A DNA stretch of 64,000 nt. Source: Alphaproteobacteria bacterium. GTDB taxonomy: Bacteria; Pseudomonadota; Alphaproteobacteria; SP197. Position 1 is the stretch's first letter. Every line of letters starts with the position of its first letter. Under the pieces are notes generated by a model. The model was not told where the DNA came from, ran no database searches, and worked only from the letters and a program-made list of their open reading frames with translations. Location: NCBI GenBank assembly GCA_965228895.1, contig OZ245842.1, forward strand, positions 2,464,001 through 2,528,000. The letters run 5' to 3'. Below are positions 15,920-29,479 of this stretch, piece after piece. Position numbers and translations under genes: made by a program.

Positions 15920-16199
15920 GCGCCCGAAGACACGCGCCGCATCTCTCTGAAGCGACAGACCGCACCGCACATCATGCGTATGGTGGTAAAACCACATCGG
16001 CAATCGACCTCAATCGATCACGCAGGTGTGACTGGATCAACCTGACGTTGATGATTCTGCTATCGCCAAACAATCTAGACGGACGCATGATAGAGGTAAC
16101 AACACGTCAACATTGCCGACCATCCACAATCAGCCGGGGCATCGCGCTGTCGGGTGAAGAAAGGCAAGGACAGCAGCGGCAGTCTTGGGGGGCTGGGAT

Positions 16200-17501
16200 A
16201 TGCCGGACATCAGAACCGGGTTGGCGGCGCGAACCTCGATGTTGCGGGGAGTTGTCGTCTGCCTTGTGGTGGCGGGCTTCGTCCTTTCCGGATGCACCAG
16301 AGTCTGGCTGGACCCTTACATCAACTTACCCAATCGAGAACTATCCGAGGGTTACGAGCCCTCTGACGGTTTTCCACAACTGCTGATCGCAGCACAGCAG
16401 GCCGAGGAACTACGACGTACCGCGTCAAAGTACCGGACCGACCTTGTCGAAAAGCGGTCGTTGCTGTCCTACGGCGCCTTCGGCGCGGCTGCCGCCGGTG
16501 GCATCGCGGCTCTCTATGGGGCGCATTCCGATCTGGTTCTTGGTCTCGGCCTCGGCGCCGCCAGCGCCTATGGCGCGGGCACCTTGTTCACAAGCACAGA
16601 TCGCATTGACACATACTCCGCGGCGAACAAAGCCCTCAACTGTGTTGTCGAAACAGCGGATTCCGTGCTGGCGACCGCCGCAAAGCTGGACGCGATGATC
16701 GCAATTGACAGCACCGCCTCACTTGACATGCAAGCTCTAGAAGCAGCCATCGCCGATGGATCGACCGCGGACAACAATGTAAACGCCGATGCTTCACTTG
16801 TTGAACTCAACGCCCGGACATTTCAGGCAATGGACGAATATCTGGCAGCAAAGAAAAACGTCGACATGTTCAGGGCACTTGACCCTGAGTTCGCCGTCGC
16901 TGTGACCCAGACCAGAGATGTCATCATTTTTGCCATGGAAGAGCGCATCCGTCAGTCTCAGCCGAGCCTCGCCAACATCCTCCAGGTCGCACAAGGCATC
17001 GGTGTCTCGGGCGTCAACTACGTTCAGGAAGTCACGGCGGTAGAAATTGACAGCAGCCAAACACTCAGCTTCGAAGAGCCGGAAGCGGTTGCGCTGAGCG
17101 CGGAGCAACTCAGCGAGACCGTCAAGGCAATCAACGAAGCGATCGATGAGGCAACCAACAAGATGGCGCAGATCGGCAACACCTGCATCTTCGAGCAAGC
17201 TCCGATTGCGCCTCTGACAGTAATGCCTGCGCAGATTACCTTAACCGCAGACCAAACAATTACTTTGGATATCACCGGTGGGAAAGAACCCTTTATCGCC
17301 ATGTGGCAGGGTGCGAACCAGCCGACCGATAAACAAATCGAGGTTGTGGTCAGCGGAAGGCAAGTCGTCTTGGTTGGCAAATCGACGCTTGACGACATCG
17401 CGGCTCAATCCGAGTTCGTTCTGGTCATTCGCGATACGCTGGCCGCGCCTAAAGAAGGGCAGGTCAAAGTGACGGTCCCTAAGGCTCAGAACTCCAGTTG
17501 A
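16200..17501 (+). CDS. Hypothetical lipoprotein (glycine-rich hydrophobic hairpin, helical middle, beta-rich C-terminus)
   Basis: Long ORF; signal peptide with lipobox VLSG-C; start 16200 or 16239. Confidence 0.75.
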   Translation: MPDIRTGLAARTSMLRGVVVCLVVAGFVLSGCTRVWLDPYINLPNRELSEGYEPSDGFPQLLIAAQQAEELRRTASKYRTDLVEKRSLLSYGAFGAAAAGGIAALYGAHSDLVLGLGLGAASAYGAGTLFTSTDRIDTYSAANKALNCVVETADSVLATAAKLDAMIAIDSTASLDMQALEAAIADGSTADNNVNADASLVELNARTFQAMDEYLAAKKNVDMFRALDPEFAVAVTQTRDVIIFAMEERIRQSQPSLANILQVAQGIGVSGVNYVQEVTAVEIDSSQTLSFEEPEAVALSAEQLSETVKAINEAIDEATNKMAQIGNTCIFEQAPIAPLTVMPAQITLTADQTITLDITGGKEPFIAMWQGANQPTDKQIEVVVSGRQVVLVGKSTLDDIAAQSEFVLVIRDTLAAPKEGQVKVTVPKAQNSS

Positions 17502-17540
17502 TCCTCGACGCCGGCATAGGAACGAAAGAGGTGCCGAGCG

Positions 17541-18188
17541 ATGTGCACAAGACATGACGTACTGAGATTTTCAATGTGTGAAGAGATTACGCAGAGAGAC
17601 GTGGAACGGCCACGCTCCTTTTTACTTGCACGTACGGTCATTCTCGTTTTGTCCGTGCTAGCGTCAACCTCACAAGCACCTCATGCGGAAGAGCTTTCTG
17701 CGCCGACCGTACGCTACGAAACCATACCGATGTTGGGTGTGTTCAAAGGCGAAGGCGACCCCAATGAGACGGCTGATTGGTGCAAAGGTCTAACGGTTGA
17801 TTTTTTGAGCGAGTCGGAACGCGAGACCCATCGCCTTACCGTCCAAGACGGAAAGATCATCAATGCGGACGGCGCACCGTTCGACACGAGCAGTGACGCC
17901 GGAACTGGTAGCCAGTCGTCACGAGCAATTTTTATCATGACAAGTGACGGAGCGTTGTACGCATCCAAACACAGCGCGCGATGCAAATTTCATCACTCGT
18001 CCTTCTTGGCTGGTGCGCCAGTGGCAGCCGCCGGAGAGATTGAAGTGAGAGATGGCCAGTTGCTATTTCTGTCAAACGACAGCGGCCACTATGAGCCGCC
18101 ATCTTCCATTACCGAGCAAGCACTGTTTGAGTTTGAACGCCTTGGCGTCGACACAAGGCACGTCGAAACGGAATGGATTGCCTATTGA
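17541..18188 (+). CDS. Secreted protein with HHSSFLAG..AAGE..SNxSGHYxP toxin-like domain
   Basis: Signal-peptide-like RPRSFLLARTVILVLSVLASTSQAPHA-EE (probable start GTG 17601); motif-rich C-terminal half. Confidence 0.7.
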   Translation: MCTRHDVLRFSMCEEITQRDVERPRSFLLARTVILVLSVLASTSQAPHAEELSAPTVRYETIPMLGVFKGEGDPNETADWCKGLTVDFLSESERETHRLTVQDGKIINADGAPFDTSSDAGTGSQSSRAIFIMTSDGALYASKHSARCKFHHSSFLAGAPVAAAGEIEVRDGQLLFLSNDSGHYEPPSSITEQALFEFERLGVDTRHVETEWIAY

Positions 18189-18298
18189 CGGTCGGCGAAC
18201 TGCCCAACGAGCAAACGACTTGCGTGATTACTCCGGCGGTCGCGGCACCGGGCTGACCGGCGACATGACGAAGAACGCGCCTGACATCGTTGGTGGAT

Positions 18299-18330
18299 GC
18301 AGCGATTCGACATCGCCGTTGAATCGCTGC
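18299..18330. promoter_or_regulatory. Perfect 10-bp inverted repeat hairpin upstream of the 70-aa gene
   Basis: GCAGCGATTC-N12-GAATCGCTGC. Confidence 0.5.
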
Positions 18331-18352
18331 CTAGCATGAGGGAGAGGAAGAG

Positions 18353-18565
18353 ATGGCAAAGGTCGTTGTCGAAGACTATCTGGTTGCCTGGAACACCGGC
18401 CAGGATGTCGGGGCGATAAAAGTCAAAGGCGCGGGCAAGAGAACCTACAAGAAGGTGAAGCTGACCAGCGCCCACGAATTCTCAGCACTCCTTGCCCTGC
18501 TGCAGGGACCGAAGATTGTCTATTACGATGACAAGACAGGCAACTTCGGCACGACAAAAAGCTGA
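18353..18565 (+). CDS. Small hypothetical protein (70 aa, basic)
   Basis: Strong purine-rich RBS (GAGGGAGAGGAAGAG-ATG) and host-like codon usage. Confidence 0.7.
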   Translation: MAKVVVEDYLVAWNTGQDVGAIKVKGAGKRTYKKVKLTSAHEFSALLALLQGPKIVYYDDKTGNFGTTKS

Positions 18566-18615
18566 CAGCCAGACCGTCGGGTCCGCTGACAGTTCGTCGC
18601 CCCAGACACGCGTGC

Positions 18616-20439
18616 CTACTCCGCCGCGACGACCTTCTTTTCGTCGATTTCGGCCTGGTGTTTGGCGCGGGCTTCGGCCTCGCCCTTGGCCTTGGCGACG
18701 GCGGCGCGGGATGACTCATTGAGCGCGAACATCTCAAGGTCTTCCTCGGTCGCGTCGTCGACCGGGGTCAATGCCAGGTCGGTGTAAACCTTCGACGCCG
18801 GATCGTTCTGAATGCGCTTCCTCAAGCGGTTGATCTTGAGCGCGTAGAGGCCGATCGCACTGTATTTGACGAGACTCTCGATCAGGTATCTCGGATAGAA
18901 GACGATCAGGTTCTCGCGCGGCAGTTCGGGCCGGCGCTGGGTCCGGACCTTGCGCCGGAAGTAACCGCACTGTTGCGGGTGCACCTTCTCGTACTTCATG
19001 GCGCAGTGGATCTGCAGGCAGTTGATCATGACGCCGTGGGGTTTGATGCCGCTGGCGACCGCGCGCTTCATCAGCCGCTCGACGTGATCGGGACTGTAGT
19101 AGACGTTCCAGGCTTCACGATAGAGGTCGTCCCACTCTTGTTCCGACATCTTGGAATGTGCCGTCGTGACATGTTCGAGATCATACTTGTTCATGTCCGG
19201 GTCCATCCACACGCCGTTCGTGTGGAGCACCTTGTGGTCCTCGGATCCCGGCAGCGGCGTCAGGATGGTGAAGCCGAGCAGATCGACCGGCAGCTCGCGT
19301 TTGATGATGTCGATATCGCGACGCACGGTCTGAGGCGTGTCTTCGGGAAAACCGATAATGAAACCGGCATAGGAGATGATGCCGTGGTTGCGCCACTTCT
19401 GCAGCATCGTGCGGTATTCGGTGATCCGGTTCTGCGCCTTCTTGGCGGCCTTCAGGTTGTCCGGGTTGATGTTCTCCAGTCCGATGAAGACACGCTTACA
19501 GCCGGCGCGGCGAGCCTTCTCAACGAAGTTCTCGGTCTTGTGGGCGAGCACGTCGACCTGGATGATGAAGCTGATGGGGATCTTGTGGTCCTCGCGCAGC
19601 TCGATCATGCGATCGAAGATCTCTTCCCAGTTCTTGTTGCGCGCGAAGTTGTCGTCGCTGATGAAATAGCGCGTGATGCCCTGGGCGTGGTTGGCGCGGA
19701 TGATCTTTTCGACATCGTCGCCGGACCGGTAACGCGAGATACGCCCCTGCACGTTGATGATGGTGCAGAACGAGCACTGGAACGGACAGCCGCGCCCGGC
19801 ATCGAAGCTGGCGTGGGAGCCGTCATATTTATGGACGAACTGGTCGGGCAGAAACGGCGTCAGCTGCTCCTGCAACGTCGGCAGCTTGTGCATGTAGTTG
19901 TAGACCGGCTTCAACTCGCCCCGGTCGGCATCGCGCAACACCTCGTCCAGATGCTCCTCCGCCTCGCCGGCGAAGATCGAGATGCCCATATCCATGGCTT
20001 CCTGGATGTCCGGCGGCACGTCTTTCAGCATGGCGAGACAGCCGGAAACGTGAAAGCCGCCGACGGCGCACTGAATGCCGGCGGCGCGGAACTGGCGCGC
20101 CAGATCGACGGCGCGTGGGAACTGGTTGGACTGCACCCCGACCAGGCAAACCAGGCCGCGATTATCGTTTTCCTTGAGCCGGCGGATGATCTGCTTGACC
20201 GGCACCACCGTGTTGACCTCGTCATGCGGGTTGATGACGAGCTCGGTATCATCCCCCAGAATCCTACGCTCGGCCATGACCTGACCGATGCCATAAAGGC
20301 AGGCGAGCGAATTGGACGGGATCCACGCCTTCGCCCACTGAATGACATAACCGTCGTCGTCGTAATGCGATGGCTTGACGAGTTCCAGATAGAATTTCTT
20401 CGTCGCGGTCGCGGCAACTGTCTCGGTGCTCTGTTGCAT
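18616..20439 (-). CDS. B12-binding domain radical SAM protein
   Basis: GRGCPFQCSFC (CxxxCxxC), GGFHVSG, DDNF, FIGLEN, GFIIGFP, TPLPGS. Confidence 0.9.
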   Translation of the reverse strand: MQQSTETVAATATKKFYLELVKPSHYDDDGYVIQWAKAWIPSNSLACLYGIGQVMAERRILGDDTELVINPHDEVNTVVPVKQIIRRLKENDNRGLVCLVGVQSNQFPRAVDLARQFRAAGIQCAVGGFHVSGCLAMLKDVPPDIQEAMDMGISIFAGEAEEHLDEVLRDADRGELKPVYNYMHKLPTLQEQLTPFLPDQFVHKYDGSHASFDAGRGCPFQCSFCTIINVQGRISRYRSGDDVEKIIRANHAQGITRYFISDDNFARNKNWEEIFDRMIELREDHKIPISFIIQVDVLAHKTENFVEKARRAGCKRVFIGLENINPDNLKAAKKAQNRITEYRTMLQKWRNHGIISYAGFIIGFPEDTPQTVRRDIDIIKRELPVDLLGFTILTPLPGSEDHKVLHTNGVWMDPDMNKYDLEHVTTAHSKMSEQEWDDLYREAWNVYYSPDHVERLMKRAVASGIKPHGVMINCLQIHCAMKYEKVHPQQCGYFRRKVRTQRRPELPRENLIVFYPRYLIESLVKYSAIGLYALKINRLRKRIQNDPASKVYTDLALTPVDDATEEDLEMFALNESSRAAVAKAKGEAEARAKHQAEIDEKKVVAAE

Positions 20440-20691
20440 TGGCTAACCCCTGCGCCAAGTGGCGCACGATGAATCCTGTGCGCCAAAAAGGAATGAGACC
20501 AAAACGAAAGCTGTTAATTCACCGTCACATAATTGAAATGGAAAGTAAATTAGAACCGGTCAAACTCCGGGTAAGTAGAAAACCGTCTCGGACTTTCAAT
20601 TGCCAAGCAAGTATTGGCGACTTCGACGGTTCACACCGCCGCCAAAGCCCAGCTTGCTCCGCGTTCCCACATCGCTGGAACGTGCCGCACC

Positions 20692-20949
20692 ATGACGGAT
20701 AGAACCATCAAACGCCGCACGATCCTGGCCGGCACCCTCGGCAACGCGCTGGAGTGGTACGACTTTGCCATCTACGGCTTCATGGCGCCGATCCTGGGCC
20801 AAGCCTTCTTTCCGGCCGAGGACAAGGTGGCCTCGCTGCTGGCCGCCTTCGGCGTCTTCGCGCCGATCTATTACTTCATGGCGGTGGCGCTTCTGCAGTT
20901 CATCGCGCTGCTGGGTCTGAAGGAGATGGCCGGCAAGCCGTTGCTGTGA
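20692..20949 (+). pseudogene. MFS (ProP/MHS-type) transporter remnant with in-frame internal deletion
   Basis: N-terminal GNALEWYDFAIYGF..FFP..LLAAFGVF joined directly to a C-terminal-type helix APIYYFMAVALLQFIALLGLKEMAGKPLL; 85 aa versus about 430 aa expected. Confidence 0.8.
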
Positions 20950-21005
20950 CGGCGGACCGACCGCAGGACGTTGGCCGCATGGCCTCCCTGCCGGGTTGTG
21001 GCGGC

Positions 21006-21440
21006 CTAGCCGAGGTCGATCGGCGCGGAATCGGGCAGAAAGTGGTGATAGCTGTTGATGTACAACGCGATCTTCAGTTCGCGCGATGGTAGCCGCTGAA
21101 CAATCCAGTCTTCACCGACAACACACTTGATCAGCCCACCTTGCGCCGATCCAATGGGCCGGCCCTCCCAATAGACGGCGCCGACAGCGCGAGCGCGTTC
21201 CGGCGCGTCGCACAGCGGCGAGATGTCCCAGGGCTCCAGGACGACATGCCTTTCGTCGGTCAGCTTCTGGTGAATCTCATAGTTCGTCTGGAGCGAGATA
21301 TCCTCGCCGTGCGGGATGAAGATCCGAGGCTCCGGGTGCAGAAAAAACGCCGCCTGGTCGTCCGCCGTCCCTTTGTCGAACATGACGACGTCGTGGAACG
21401 CCTTCATCAGCGTGATGACGTCGTCCTTGGTAATCGCCAT
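21006..21440 (-). CDS. Hypothetical protein, possibly SnoaL/NTF2-like fold
   Basis: 144-aa ORF with GGGGG RBS; helix-then-strand pattern ending VGEDWIVQR..LKIALY. Confidence 0.65.
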   Translation of the reverse strand: MAITKDDVITLMKAFHDVVMFDKGTADDQAAFFLHPEPRIFIPHGEDISLQTNYEIHQKLTDERHVVLEPWDISPLCDAPERARAVGAVYWEGRPIGSAQGGLIKCVVGEDWIVQRLPSRELKIALYINSYHHFLPDSAPIDLG

Positions 21441-21601
21441 GACCAAGCCCCCCGCTTCTCACGACACCGAAACCGTCTCACGTCCAGGTTCCGCCGTCCA
21501 TGGTTGAGGCCTTATCGCGCGCCGGGAACTCGGTCGAAAACAGAAGCCAACAACACCTCGTTTAATAGGTGAAGGAATCTAGTTAACTAATTGAAAACAA
21601 A

Positions 21602-21678
21602 TGGCGTGCCCTCCTGGATTCGTACCTGGCACCTACGGCTTAGAATGCCGTTGCTCTATCCAACTGAGCTAACGATGC
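21602..21678 (-). pseudogene. Degenerate full-length copy of tRNA-Arg(UCU); distal direct repeat (att-like)
   Basis: 69/77 identical to 24828..24904; broken acceptor stem, T-loop TACGAAT, T-stem mismatch. Confidence 0.92.
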
Positions 21679-21727
21679 TTGGCTGACGCTGCGTGGGATG
21701 ATCTGCTTGTTTAGCGGTCATCCGCAC

Positions 21728-23815
21728 TCAAAGAAGGGTGCATTCCAAAAGCTCAATATCAGAGTTGGTGAGCATACGGCCCTCTGCCATGAGCCTGCGT
21801 ATGTTGGCGACGCCTATGTCTATGTCATAAGTATCTATCACATTATGAACTCGTTCTACGATAGGAGCGGGGACCCCCACTTCCTCAAGAGCTTTCGAGT
21901 TCCCCGGAAGGCCCCAGGACGAAATGTCTGCCAAGAACTTACTGTAATTGCAATGTTCATCAGCAGGTAGGGCTGCATTAACAATGTTCTGAAGCATCTC
22001 TAATGGCTCAAAAAATGAATATTCAACGCCTCGAAGGAAATTAAAAGCCAGATCCAAACTCTCGCCTGTGTCGTCTCCATTTGCCACATTGACAAGAAAC
22101 TCCTTTATTGTCTCGCTACGTTGAAGTTTGTTGGCTAGGAAGGCAAACTGTCGAGCAGAACGAACCCCGTGCTTCTCAAAATCGACACGCCCCCAGATTG
22201 CTTCAACACTTGTCAACACCTCCCGATATCGGCCAACACCAACCCACACAAGAGACCTGTCACCTAGCTCAATACGACTTGAAACATCCAAGTAGATGTC
22301 TTCGACCTGTTCTAGACCAAACTTTGCATAGCGAACAAGTATGTCATCTGGCACCTCGACCTGATCGAGTATCTCCACGCGCCGAACCTGATTTCTTTCT
22401 GACAGGCGAGTCTCTGGCATCTGAAGGACCGCCTGATCGGAAAGTTGATCCTTCGACTTCAGTAGAGGAATATCGAGCGCCTCATAAGTTGCTGCTGGGG
22501 GCTCATTGAAAAGGTAGACACGGCCAACGAAGTGTTGAAACATTCGACCCGCACGACCCTTGATGTTATCGTATGTAAAACGATCTAGTTTTCGTCTACT
22601 TATATATTTGTCATAAATAACAACGTTCTCAGCTACTGTATTAACCCCCTCAATAAGTGACGAGGTACACAACAGGACTCTAATCAGACCGAGATTGAAC
22701 AACTGCACCATTAGGTGACTTACAGCCCTTGGCACACGACCGTGGTGAATACCAATGCCACACTCTAGTGCATCGGCGACGTACCACTCATCATGATAGT
22801 TCTCGCGAAGCCAGTCAGCCAGGCGCTGCACAGTGGCGTCTTCTGTAACGACGCCGCGATCCATAAGCTCGCGGCACACAGTCCTGGTAGACTTTGGAGA
22901 CCGACAGTAAACGAGAGACGATCCGCTAATCTCGTCGCGTAGCAGATTGGCCAGCGTATCAGGATCTGTCCCTGGAGGATCTACGCGAATGACATCAGCC
23001 GTTACAGGCGAATATGTTGTCCTAACAAATTCAAAGTTCTCGCGCTCTGTCTGATCGACTGGATTAGTTTCGATAGACGGTCCAAGAAGGTACACCTGCT
23101 CAGCCACATCTATGTATTGGGCAAGTAGTGTATTGAGCGCACGCGCCCGTGCATCCCCATTTGTCAAATCAAGCTTGTAGAACTCATCAACCACGAAGAG
23201 ATTTGGCGATAGGTCCTCGTGTCTCTCCAGAATACGCTCTTGTGTACCGATTATGATTGTCTTTTCGGCGTGCAGTTCTTGAAAGCTCTGTGTCAATATA
23301 TGGTACTCCGGGAAACGAACGGCTAGAGTACGGCGACGTTCTTCCAACAGTGCGATTGTTGGCACAACAATTATCACTAACTCTGGTTGTTTCGATGCTA
23401 TAAGAGCATCAACCAACAGCGTTTTCCCAAAACTCGTTGGAGCAGAAAGAACCAAATTCTCTCCATCTATCAACTTAGAGAAAATGCGTCTTTGCTCAGA
23501 GTGAAAAAAGAAGTCTATTAGACCAGGGACCCGGTGAAACTCACGGGCAACATCATTACGAAGATCCTGCTCTTCTCCCAGGTACGGATACAACCCAGCT
23601 TCTCTGACAAAACTGTCAACTATCTGACTTGCCCCCGGAAGGACTCTTTCGAAATCTTCAACTCTATTAATTAGGCGGATTGCAATTTCTACGTCTTCGG
23701 CAATTTCTCTTTCACCGTTTAGCCAATATCGCGAAGCTCTGTCGAGTAACTTAACAACATCAGCGCTTTCGATTTCGCTCTTCTCTATATCACTAAGTAA
23801 ATCTGGGTTGATCAT
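21728..23815 (-). CDS. hamB: Hachiman helicase HamB (Ski2-like SF2 DEAD/DEAH helicase)
   Basis: APTSFGKT, VPTIALL, TQER, DEFYK, GIHHG, TSSLIEGVN, NIKGRAGRM; ATGA overlap with upstream hamA. Confidence 0.88.
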   Translation of the reverse strand: MINPDLLSDIEKSEIESADVVKLLDRASRYWLNGEREIAEDVEIAIRLINRVEDFERVLPGASQIVDSFVREAGLYPYLGEEQDLRNDVAREFHRVPGLIDFFFHSEQRRIFSKLIDGENLVLSAPTSFGKTLLVDALIASKQPELVIIVVPTIALLEERRRTLAVRFPEYHILTQSFQELHAEKTIIIGTQERILERHEDLSPNLFVVDEFYKLDLTNGDARARALNTLLAQYIDVAEQVYLLGPSIETNPVDQTERENFEFVRTTYSPVTADVIRVDPPGTDPDTLANLLRDEISGSSLVYCRSPKSTRTVCRELMDRGVVTEDATVQRLADWLRENYHDEWYVADALECGIGIHHGRVPRAVSHLMVQLFNLGLIRVLLCTSSLIEGVNTVAENVVIYDKYISRRKLDRFTYDNIKGRAGRMFQHFVGRVYLFNEPPAATYEALDIPLLKSKDQLSDQAVLQMPETRLSERNQVRRVEILDQVEVPDDILVRYAKFGLEQVEDIYLDVSSRIELGDRSLVWVGVGRYREVLTSVEAIWGRVDFEKHGVRSARQFAFLANKLQRSETIKEFLVNVANGDDTGESLDLAFNFLRGVEYSFFEPLEMLQNIVNAALPADEHCNYSKFLADISSWGLPGNSKALEEVGVPAPIVERVHNVIDTYDIDIGVANIRRLMAEGRMLTNSDIELLECTLL

Positions 23816-24663
23816 TCAAACGCCCCCAACTTATTCTGAAAGTCCGTCTCGAGTGAGTGCTTCGAGGCTAAGGGTATGTAGATCGCGACGACCCTAACGC
23901 TCTTTGCGATCGCCGATTTCGCGAGCCGGTCATTTATGTAGTCATACTCTTCAATGACGAAACTCGAGTAGTTTTCCTTGCACGTTTGATAGTTCTTTGC
24001 AGCCTCACTCTCGGAGGCGATCAGTACCGGTACGACGATGCGTTCGACGAGCTCGTCTAGAGTGTTTCCGTCGTCAAACAACCACTGGAGTTTGTCGTAA
24101 CCCGGTGTGGAAGGTTCTATCTTTGGGCCAATCAAGATTTTCGTTTCTTCTAGAAAACCTTGATCAAGATGATCTTTGAGGCTGGAAAGAGCGGCTGAAA
24201 CTGCTTGGCCGGTATCACTGTAGAATTTTGCCTCTCCTAGCCAGAGCTCTATTTCGCCACTTGTGTCTTCGTATGTGACCAGTGCGGAGTCAAAACCCGT
24301 AACTTGATCATTCGGTCGCATTTTATAGAAAAGGCGCGATACAAAAGCATAAGCACGGTACTCCGACACACAAACTATATGGAGCAACAACTCGCCAATC
24401 TCTCCACGATGCTTCGCGTTTTCTTTCTTGAATACTCGGAATGCAGCCTCCTTTAGAAGCTTGTAAGCATTCTCGGGGCCGATTTGCTCAATCTCCGACG
24501 GCCGAAGCGCAAACTGGGGCAACCAGTTGATAAGGTGTTCTGCAAGTTTCTTAGAGCGCCATACGCCTAGCTCAAATCCGGCACATGCAGCCAAGCCGGC
24601 AACATCAGAGTTATCGTCACGGTGAAGAACTGACAAAAACTTATCTGGCAACTCTAGGGGCAT
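23812..24663 (-). CDS. hamA: Hachiman protein HamA (DUF1837, PD-(D/E)xK nuclease)
   Basis: RGEIGELLLH, GFD, LWLGEAKFY motifs characteristic of DUF1837; directly upstream of the helicase. Confidence 0.88.
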   Translation of the reverse strand: MPLELPDKFLSVLHRDDNSDVAGLAACAGFELGVWRSKKLAEHLINWLPQFALRPSEIEQIGPENAYKLLKEAAFRVFKKENAKHRGEIGELLLHIVCVSEYRAYAFVSRLFYKMRPNDQVTGFDSALVTYEDTSGEIELWLGEAKFYSDTGQAVSAALSSLKDHLDQGFLEETKILIGPKIEPSTPGYDKLQWLFDDGNTLDELVERIVVPVLIASESEAAKNYQTCKENYSSFVIEEYDYINDRLAKSAIAKSVRVVAIYIPLASKHSLETDFQNKLGAFE

Positions 24664-24702
24664 AAATCAGAGATTCAGCTAAGACCTTATCATTAACTAA
24701 CC

Positions 24703-24732
24703 GAATAGTGGCTAGAGGCGGCTTTTTGTCAA
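24703..24732 (-). promoter_or_regulatory. Candidate sigma70 promoter for hamAB
   Basis: Perfect TTGACA (24732-24727), then CACTAT/ACTATT at 16-17 bp spacing, about 40 nt upstream of the hamA ATG. Confidence 0.45.
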
Positions 24733-24827
24733 CCAGAAGCAACAAATGCAGCCTTGTTCTGCTATCTCAGGCAGGCGCAAGACGACACGAGGTCGATAGC
24801 GAACACAAAGGTCTTTAGTGCAAGAAA

Positions 24828-24904
24828 TGGCGCGCCCTCCAGGATTCGAACCTGGGACCTACGGCTTAGAAGGCCGTTGCTCTATCCAACTGAGCTAAGG
24901 GCGC
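24828..24904 (-). tRNA. tRNA-Arg(UCU)
   Basis: Full cloverleaf GCGCCCT..ACGGC-CTTCTAA-GCCGT..CCAGG-TTCGAAT-CCTGG-AGGGCGC-GCCA. Confidence 0.97.
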
Positions 24905-25217: not shown

Positions 25218-25345
25218 GGTTCACTTGCGCCTTTCGTCATCACCCCAAAACCCTTCCTCGGTCTATAGCGAGCCTGGGTGGCAGGCGCAAGCCGCGCCAA
25301 TAAATCTTTACAGATGAGGCACCTAGCATCATTTTAGGGCATCCT

Positions 25346-25483
25346 TAGAGCAGATCCTGTTTTGAGGACATCGCTTCGCGATGGCATCGAGACAGGTGAA
25401 TCTGCTCTATTTATAGATGGAGAGCGGATTCACGTGTTTAGGTGGAACCGACAAGCGGTTCCACCGAAACACGATCCGCTCTA
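25346..25483. repeat. Composite palindromic element: two inverted 64-bp units around an AT-rich spacer
   Basis: 25346-25409 TAGAGCAGAT..ATCTGCTCTA and 25420-25483 GAGAGCGGAT..ATCCGCTCTA; each is a hairpin and the two are homologous in opposite orientation. Confidence 0.85.
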
Positions 25484-25496
25484 GGGGGAAAAACGG

Positions 25497-29415: not shown

Positions 29416-29479
29416 TAGAGCGGATTCACGTGGTTAGGTAGAACCGTCAACCGGTTCCACCCAATCACGACCCGCTCTA
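29416..29479. repeat. Solo 64-bp palindromic unit (same family as 25420-25483)
   Basis: TAGAGCGGATTCACGTGGTTAGGTAGAACCGTCAACCGGTTCCACCCAATCACGACCCGCTCTA. Confidence 0.85.

Follow-up and report, generated by a model that had tools for sequence, protein, structure and literature searches.

How did a two-gene defence operon come to lie between a tRNA gene and a dead copy of that same gene, in a block that holds no integrase? The question is raised by one locus in the window analysed here, a stretch of 64,000 nucleotides from an Alphaproteobacteria bacterium (assembly GCA_965228895.1, contig OZ245842.1, positions 2,464,001 to 2,528,000). On the minus strand, an intact tRNA-Arg(UCU) gene is followed by a 164-bp leader, the Hachiman genes hamA and hamB, a 55-bp tail and a dead tRNA copy. 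The reading we favour, at about an even chance, is that hamAB arrived through a one-off, integrase-independent duplication-insertion at tRNA-Arg. The features on which the argument turns are the following.

24828..24904, minus strand: intact tRNA-Arg(UCU) gene, called by ARAGORN, 100% identical in the two other genomes of the genus, with a cloverleaf fold.
24664..24827, minus strand: hamA leader, 164 bp, without an attachment-site (att) arm motif (direct sequence reading; arm matrix).
23812..24663, minus strand: hamA, encoding a stand-alone DUF1837 nuclease of 283 amino acids (aa) (Pfam, PADLOC, residues, fold model).
21728..23815, minus strand: hamB, encoding a short Ski2-like superfamily 2 (SF2) helicase of 695 aa (PADLOC, Pfam DEAD and Helicase_C, PDB match, motifs).
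21673..21727, minus strand: tail from the hamB stop to the copy, 55 bp, without an arm motif and without resemblance to the sequence preceding the real tRNA gene.
21602..21672, minus strand: dead tRNA-Arg copy, tRNA positions 7-77, 71 nt, 5 substitutions (sequence comparison, BLASTN, folding).
21584..21596, minus strand: att-arm motif just 3' of the copy, resembling the integration host factor (IHF) consensus of PMC9452768 with 12/13 matches (arm matrix).

The initial annotation described the boundary as a 77-nt repeat of the whole tRNA gene. The decayed direct copy is real and non-random (BLASTN E 9e-23 against the 5.5-Mb genome), but it covers positions 7-77 only; the 77 nt at 21596-21672 consist of these 71 nt plus 6 nt of 3' flank. 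We call the copy near-complete rather than full-length because positions 1-6 (3/6 matching, a score reached by 37.5% of shuffles) and the DNA further upstream (tried at 6, 15, 30 and 55 nt) match no better than shuffled sequence. Bases 7-32 match the intact gene perfectly, and the substitutions fall at tRNA positions 33, 49, 56, 64 and 72. The copy cannot work as a tRNA: it lacks the 5' acceptor strand, differs at both position 49 and position 56 (each invariant among the 90/90 distinct tRNA-Arg(TCT) genes compared) and does not form a stable cloverleaf any more (-20.4 kcal/mol, z -0.48, compared to -33.3 kcal/mol, z -2.40, for the intact gene). The intact gene is the sole tRNA-Arg(TCT) among 50 tRNA genes called genome-wide by ARAGORN. 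A chimera with the 5' end of another tRNA was considered and rejected, as no tRNA of this genome fits the 5' 32 nt of the copy better than Arg(TCT) (29/32; next best 24). The exact sequence of the mutated copy had no match in viral contigs, and the 492 calls made by ARAGORN on the window at a lowered threshold were judged to be noise.

The block itself is largely as first described, with the intact tRNA-Arg(UCU) at one edge (ARAGORN, 24828-24904, minus strand), an AT-richer composition, only two coupled genes and cargo running nearly edge to edge. hamA and hamB are co-oriented and adjacent with a 4-nt overlap, and they occupy 2936 of the 3155 bp between tRNA gene and copy (93% of the block). 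The GC content is 0.477 compared to 0.624 for the genome, and the GC content at third codon positions is 0.54 and 0.45 for the two block open reading frames (ORFs) and 0.80-0.84 in three genes nearby. The ORF list shows neither an integrase nor any further ORF of at least 70 aa with space of its own inside the block. By eye, the hamA leader holds a promoter candidate with a perfect -35 hexamer (24732-24727), a 16-nt spacer and a weak -10 (24710-24705); a promoter and terminator scan gave one promoter-like site (shuffle mean 3.5) and no terminators, and did not call this candidate. A 5124-nt contig of sequencing run X1 agrees with 19762-24885 at every base, with 0 gaps. As X1 is possibly the source sample, the contig speaks for correct assembly, not for independent occurrence.

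We compared the site with two other members of the genus, G001 and G002, whose assemblies are both fragmented (95% and 97% complete). Both carry different DNA at this tRNA and neither has a HamA or HamB match (0/2 each), which bears out the earlier view of accessory, repeat-bounded cargo at a tRNA hotspot. In G001, the tRNA is followed by a satellite-like element with a tyrosine integrase, a helix-turn-helix protein, a primase and a terminase. The two ends of this element are split between two contigs. On the right it ends in a perfect 45-bp att (positions 33-77), and the flank after this attR is homologous to the flank after the dead copy here. The element (L033:287-8662 and L032:8217-10911) encodes the integrase, an HTH_17 protein, a DUF6998 protein, the primase, the terminase and two left-end cargo ORFs of 248 and 182 aa, which have no Pfam, PADLOC or NCBIfam match and are possibly new defence genes. 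G002 has no repeat at this tRNA and carries a 656-aa membrane-protein-like gene instead. In six other, more distant family genomes, the tRNA lies 0.1-0.95 kb from the threonine dehydratase region, compared to 8.9 kb here. Positions 18614-21451 are shared with G001 and G002 and fall within an older layer:

15920..21583, no strand assigned: older accreted hotspot layer with a SnoaL-like ORF, an internally deleted major facilitator superfamily (MFS) gene, a radical S-adenosylmethionine (SAM) gene and orphan ORFs; context outside the hamAB block.

The site is an additive hotspot, with hamAB as its newest layer.

The extent of the repeat was compared with att sites of integrase elements. Those at this tRNA begin at position 32-33, as seen in G001 (33-77), in a small islet of another genome (G122; 32-77) and in the 45-nt core of viral attP; all 6/6 viral contigs that have this exact core carry it as attP without the 5' tRNA half. 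The repeat here has 26 further bases (7-32), all matching, which favours duplication of the gene over ordinary att formation. Reading 0.2-19.8 kb downstream of the tRNA at 78 other tRNA-Arg loci revealed no long decayed copy, and a 5'-truncated tRNA-Arg was found at 0/65 evaluable distinct viral loci, all with a complete acceptor stem (80 viral loci examined of at least 120). Across the class, 6/186 other genomes with a match had two tRNA-Arg matches (2 candidates scored per genome); in the five of these six that were checked, the second match was far away or on another contig, the G435 pair lying 2.5 Mb apart. A second tRNA 1.9 kb downstream at one locus (L118) proved to be a genuine Arg(TCG) gene, and a 14-mer match at another (L044) was treated as chance. 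The 7-77 extent is therefore uncommon among the loci compared. Integrase absence and long repeats have each been described for tRNA islands in the literature available to us. The G122 islet, the one integrase-less islet with an ordinary att among the 78 loci, is 1.16 kb long, AT-richer and bounded by a perfect 46-bp att (L083, G122:C2, <1.2 kb from tRNA-Arg); by eye, its ORFs encode an 81-aa GIY-YIG nuclease-like and a 208-aa peptidase-like protein.

Measured against the tRNA-island signature used by Islander, as set out in the accessible text of PMC4383910, the locus shares an intact tRNA gene, foreign cargo and a displaced 3' fragment downstream in the same orientation and within 2-200 kb. 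It differs from that definition in having no tyrosine integrase within or overlapping the block, and from the fragments described there, which start at the anticodon loop, the T loop or the T-acceptor junction, in starting at position 7. Compared to the G001 element, it lacks an integrase and a left att arm, and its fragment begins at position 7.

Which of the two tRNA sequences is the older resident was addressed through the att arms. The IHF consensus is given in PMC9452768. A matrix built from 8 att flanks, with this site excluded, was scored against 1000 shuffles. The dead-copy flank, with the arm at +6, scored 12.1 (2/1000 shuffles as good) and the homologous G001 flank 8.3 (31/1000), while the functional tRNA flank (130/1000), the leader (391/1000, best score 5.9) and the tail (213/1000) were at background. 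An IHF-like motif within 40 nt of CCA is also found at phage attP sites and at 33/66 distinct viral tRNA loci. The motif after the copy is likely the left arm of an older island. Since this motif lies beyond the copy, and a search of both edges of the hamAB block turned up none, the copy probably represents the original tRNA gene of the site, pushed aside later, and an integrase supplied in trans would act poorly on the block.

A duplication-insertion could have proceeded as follows. Foreign DNA carrying hamAB behind its own tRNA-Arg would have recombined at one end through the conserved tRNA or its upstream gene, while the other end would have been joined at tRNA position 7 without extended homology, either directly or through a circle crossing over within the 71-bp homology. 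This would leave an intact gene upstream and push the resident gene downstream minus its first six bases, still joined to the att arm of the older island. The displaced gene would have been dead on arrival and would have gathered its five substitutions since. The block is likely now fixed. The unrelated contexts of close HamAB homologues support this reading: two lie in restriction-modification islands (L054 and L055, judged from ORF translations) and one stands alone with hamC (L050). HamA was found in 2/33 family genomes, and only one of the 29 HamA-homologue loci, many of them on short contigs, lies behind a tRNA (L066). At this locus (L066:53-3256), a distant hamAB (HamA 39% identity) starts 180-250 bp behind a tRNA-Arg(CCT), and no repeat was seen in the 5-kb contig.

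Several observations weigh against a one-step duplication-insertion. All five substitutions lie within 33-77 and none in 7-32 (P 0.094), with the first exactly at the att boundary, and a two-step origin would predict such clustering. In the G001 satellite, cargo fills the left-end slot that hamAB occupies here, as would fit a remnant. The arm matrix is small (8 sites) and misses the integrase-side arm of G001 (202/1000), which makes the absence of a motif at the block ends weak evidence. Neither a donor, nor an empty allele of this species, nor an intermediate was seen. The join at position 7 would call on homology-facilitated illegitimate recombination. Finally, att repeats of integrase elements are reported at 12-98 bp in S. 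meliloti (accessible text of PMC11476347) and at 15-221 bp at Klebsiella tRNA islands (bioRxiv 2020.11.02.365908, as available), and integration is known to leave partial tRNA copies behind, according to the part of PMC9897764 seen.

These points lend some weight to a second explanation, which we regard as possible though on the unlikely side: that the block is what is left of a tyrosine-integrase island or satellite like that of G001. Such an element would have had an unusually long attP, or positions 7-32 would have been added afterwards through recombination with the intact gene; it would then have shed its integrase, its genes for replication and packaging and both arms, and retained only the selected defence cargo. 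We keep it close because the clustering of substitutions in 33-77 and the left-end position of the cargo, the same as in G001, favour it. The site is used by G001-like integrase elements and by viral attP, and integrase-less islets with ordinary att sites exist, namely in G122 and apparently at the tRNA genes for formylmethionine (fMet) and Glu(CTC) in this genome; among Klebsiella tRNA islands, 135/162 had an integrase and 27 did not (bioRxiv 2020.11.02.365908, in the portion available). On the other hand, the deletion that made a remnant would have had to come within 55 bp of the repeat and remove the left arm as well, and positions 7-32 would need an origin. An extended attP was seen in 0/6 viral attP contigs and at 0/65 evaluable viral tRNA loci, and no integrase remnant was found in the ORF list or by tblastn with the G001 integrase. 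The primase and terminase of G001 had no match in this genome at E 1e-3, unlike what the definition of a phage satellite describes. On its own, the stripped-down island put forward in the initial annotation leaves unexplained why the repeat reaches position 7 when att sites here start at 32-33.

A third explanation, a minimal cassette that is currently mobile, through an integrase or recombinase in trans or through swapping of the unit between strains via the repeats, is very unlikely. The cargo fills 93% of the block with both ORFs intact, each genus member has different cargo, and the genome has recombinases to offer, with two element-type tyrosine integrases and four serine recombinases. 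Of the four PF00589 matches genome-wide, none is near the block; beside the two element-type integrases, which belong to islands with Lys and Thr tRNA repeats at their borders, two are shorter and likely XerC/D. All four serine recombinases are far from the block, and the G001 integrase has no tblastn match in this genome at E 0.1. A Xer/dif module was rejected, as none of the 37 dif-like strand matches genome-wide lies in C1:2480000-2492000. The block ends carry no arm motifs, and all five substitutions of the copy lie in the att core, one of them at its very first base. None of the 29 HamA-homologue loci, many on short contigs, is framed by a tRNA repeat. The suggestion that the cassette moved in trans is not supported. 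No empty-site or circle joint was found in four runs, a result that is uninformative given that these offer contigs only, at low depth (runs X3 and X4 hold only 151-250-nt pieces). Lastly, an independent tRNA gene, functional or foreign, in place of a copy, for which 1/78 loci offers a precedent (the Arg(TCG) gene of L118), or a misassembled repeat, is dismissed as extremely improbable, because the copy has no 5' acceptor strand, changed invariant positions and no fold, its 5' 32 nt match the intact gene best, and a separately assembled, identical contig runs across it.

The cargo was then classified. HamA matched Pfam PF08878 at E 4.9e-41 (141.5 bits against a cut-off of 25) and the PADLOC models HamA1 (E 1.4e-87) and HamA2 (E 8.5e-81). 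Residues D124 and E144-A-K146 are invariant in the 31/31 homologues aligned (31 of 273 matches) and match the D-E(X)K motif reported as essential in Hachiman HamA in the accessible text of PMC12278908. In a predicted model (mean predicted local distance difference test score, pLDDT, 82.4), only HamA chains matched at E <= 0.001 (8zue_A, 8vx9_A and 8vxy_A), with the type I-B HamA of 8ZUE as the closest fold (Foldseek E 2.1e-10). HamB matched PADLOC HamB1 (E 2.5e-182) and HamB2 (E 1.7e-175), with Walker A (125-132), Walker B (210-213) and motif VI (420-424) all in place. Against the PDB, it matched 8zue_B at E 1.1e-83 (residues 49-662) and 8vx9_B at E 1.4e-8; the alignment with 8ZUE_B, which is without the WH* and OB-fold domains, runs nearly end to end. 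NCBIfam gave no HamA match and only sub-threshold helicase matches. No hamC was found at the locus, where 55 bp separate hamB from the copy, and the best tblastn match of the L050 HamC in the genome had E 0.24; the Pfam family DUF3223 itself was not searched. A scan of genome contigs gave one locus.

Under the definitions given in the available text of PMC11914072, these matches support a predicted type I Hachiman operon without hamC, as first proposed, and the HamA, with DUF1837 only and PD-(D/E)xK residues, would place it in type I-A. The type I-A systems of E. coli ECOR31 (PDB 8VX9, PMC12278908) and DEC14B (PMC11914072) share with it, as far as these sources were accessible, two overlapping genes, a stand-alone DUF1837 HamA with D-ExK, an SF2 HamB and no hamC; the HamB here differs in having 695 rather than about 1170 aa and in its distance from 8VX9_B (E 1.4e-8). 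Type I-B, AbpAB of the E. coli K-12 CP4-57 element (PDB 8ZUE, same portion of PMC11914072), provides the closest solved HamB and the closest HamA fold, yet here there is no N-terminal Cap4 nuclease, and DUF1837 retains the catalytic residues that type I-B lacks. For type II (HamA, HamB and HamC/DUF3223), a 70% identical relative (L050) has hamC after hamB, and the PADLOC type II models score almost as high here, yet no hamC was found by tblastn in this genome. On sequence grounds, the operon is type I-A-like, pairing a putatively active stand-alone HamA with a short AbpB-like helicase, a pairing already covered by PADLOC models.

By analogy with characterised relatives, HamAB very probably serves to destroy DNA upon phage infection. 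HamA and HamB would form a 1:1 complex, in which the helicase would sense abnormal DNA and free the D-ExK nuclease; freed HamA would then degrade phage and host DNA, resulting in abortive infection.

A second scar in the same genome bears on how such blocks age. At the tRNA-Thr(CGT) locus (L141, G000:C1:5244200-5262187; G000 being the genome studied here), a 15.5-kb integrase element with a 49-bp att is followed by 2.2 kb of integrase-less cargo and then by a full-length decayed copy, with 29/30 leader positions identical and 57/75 (76%) in the body. G002 has the tRNA-Thr cargo at 73-79% identity together with a more decayed copy, while G001 has other cargo there and only a 3' tRNA fragment. 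With cargo and copy both shared by G002, such scar blocks can outlast the separation of species, as one would expect of fixed scars more than of mobile cassettes. The displaced-copy pattern thus occurs twice in the genus, for Arg with Hachiman and for Thr with other cargo. A broader proposal, that tRNA genes are anchors for recurring integrase-free gene gain in which the resident is displaced as a near-complete dead copy, is in our view unlikely. Blocks of about 3 kb also lie behind tRNA-Met(CAT) (fMet; C1:3785586-3788792) and tRNA-Glu(CTC) (C1:3070914-3074355), with 3' repeats of 22 and 16 nt and no tyrosine or serine recombinase match inside.

Other observations concern the surroundings. The MFS transporter gene at window 20614-20949 has lost ~1 kb of its interior between two short repeats, with the junction near 20853-20862; the ORF is 111 aa here and 444 aa in G002, G001 has a homologous longer gene, and the X1 contig confirms the sequence. 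The low-GC outer hotspot layer (window 16185-18565) holds ORFs of 438, 215 and 70 aa without Pfam or PADLOC match. A palindromic intergenic repeat at window 25344-25485 and 29417-29479 (63 nt, 89%), matched by many X1 contigs, likely belongs to a dispersed repeat family. A tRNA-like 5' fragment with the D arm and the start of the anticodon arm lies at G000:C1:2361560-2361660, uncalled by ARAGORN; no tRNA-Lys(TTT) was called genome-wide.

Much of this has precedent: in the literature available to us, Hachiman is well described, and integrase-less tRNA islands and tRNA defence hotspots are already published. The P. aeruginosa hotspots cDHS1/2 (PMC10250203) and E. coli hotspot 37 (PMC10121019) similarly have defence cargo beside tRNA or tmRNA genes that varies among relatives, and no mobile gene is detectable at 29% of the sites for cDHS1 and 47% for cDHS2, for which homologous recombination was proposed (PMC10250203). 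A near-complete dead tRNA boundary is not described in the accessible text of either source, nor was a description of such a displaced-tRNA scar found in the literature searched for this architecture. Integrase-less scars would be under-counted, because Islander, according to the available part of PMC4383910, rejects candidates without an integrase.

The defence system itself is ordinary and the scar mildly odd. The natural pairing of HamA with an AbpB-like helicase could test whether the trigger, DNA ends or double-stranded DNA, follows the helicase type. The scar records the entry of a defence operon to a tRNA hotspot without a recognisable vector, a matter left open by the hotspot studies as far as their text was available, and near-complete displaced tRNA copies, if they prove common, would be a searchable signature for such events. 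If the unlikely broader proposal of recurring integrase-free gain at tRNA genes is correct, recombination by the host could delete or amplify cargo between repeats of ~70 bp until the copy had gathered enough substitutions to fix it in place, and such gain could represent an overlooked route of defence spread in alphaproteobacteria, in blocks that integrase-requiring island finders discard.

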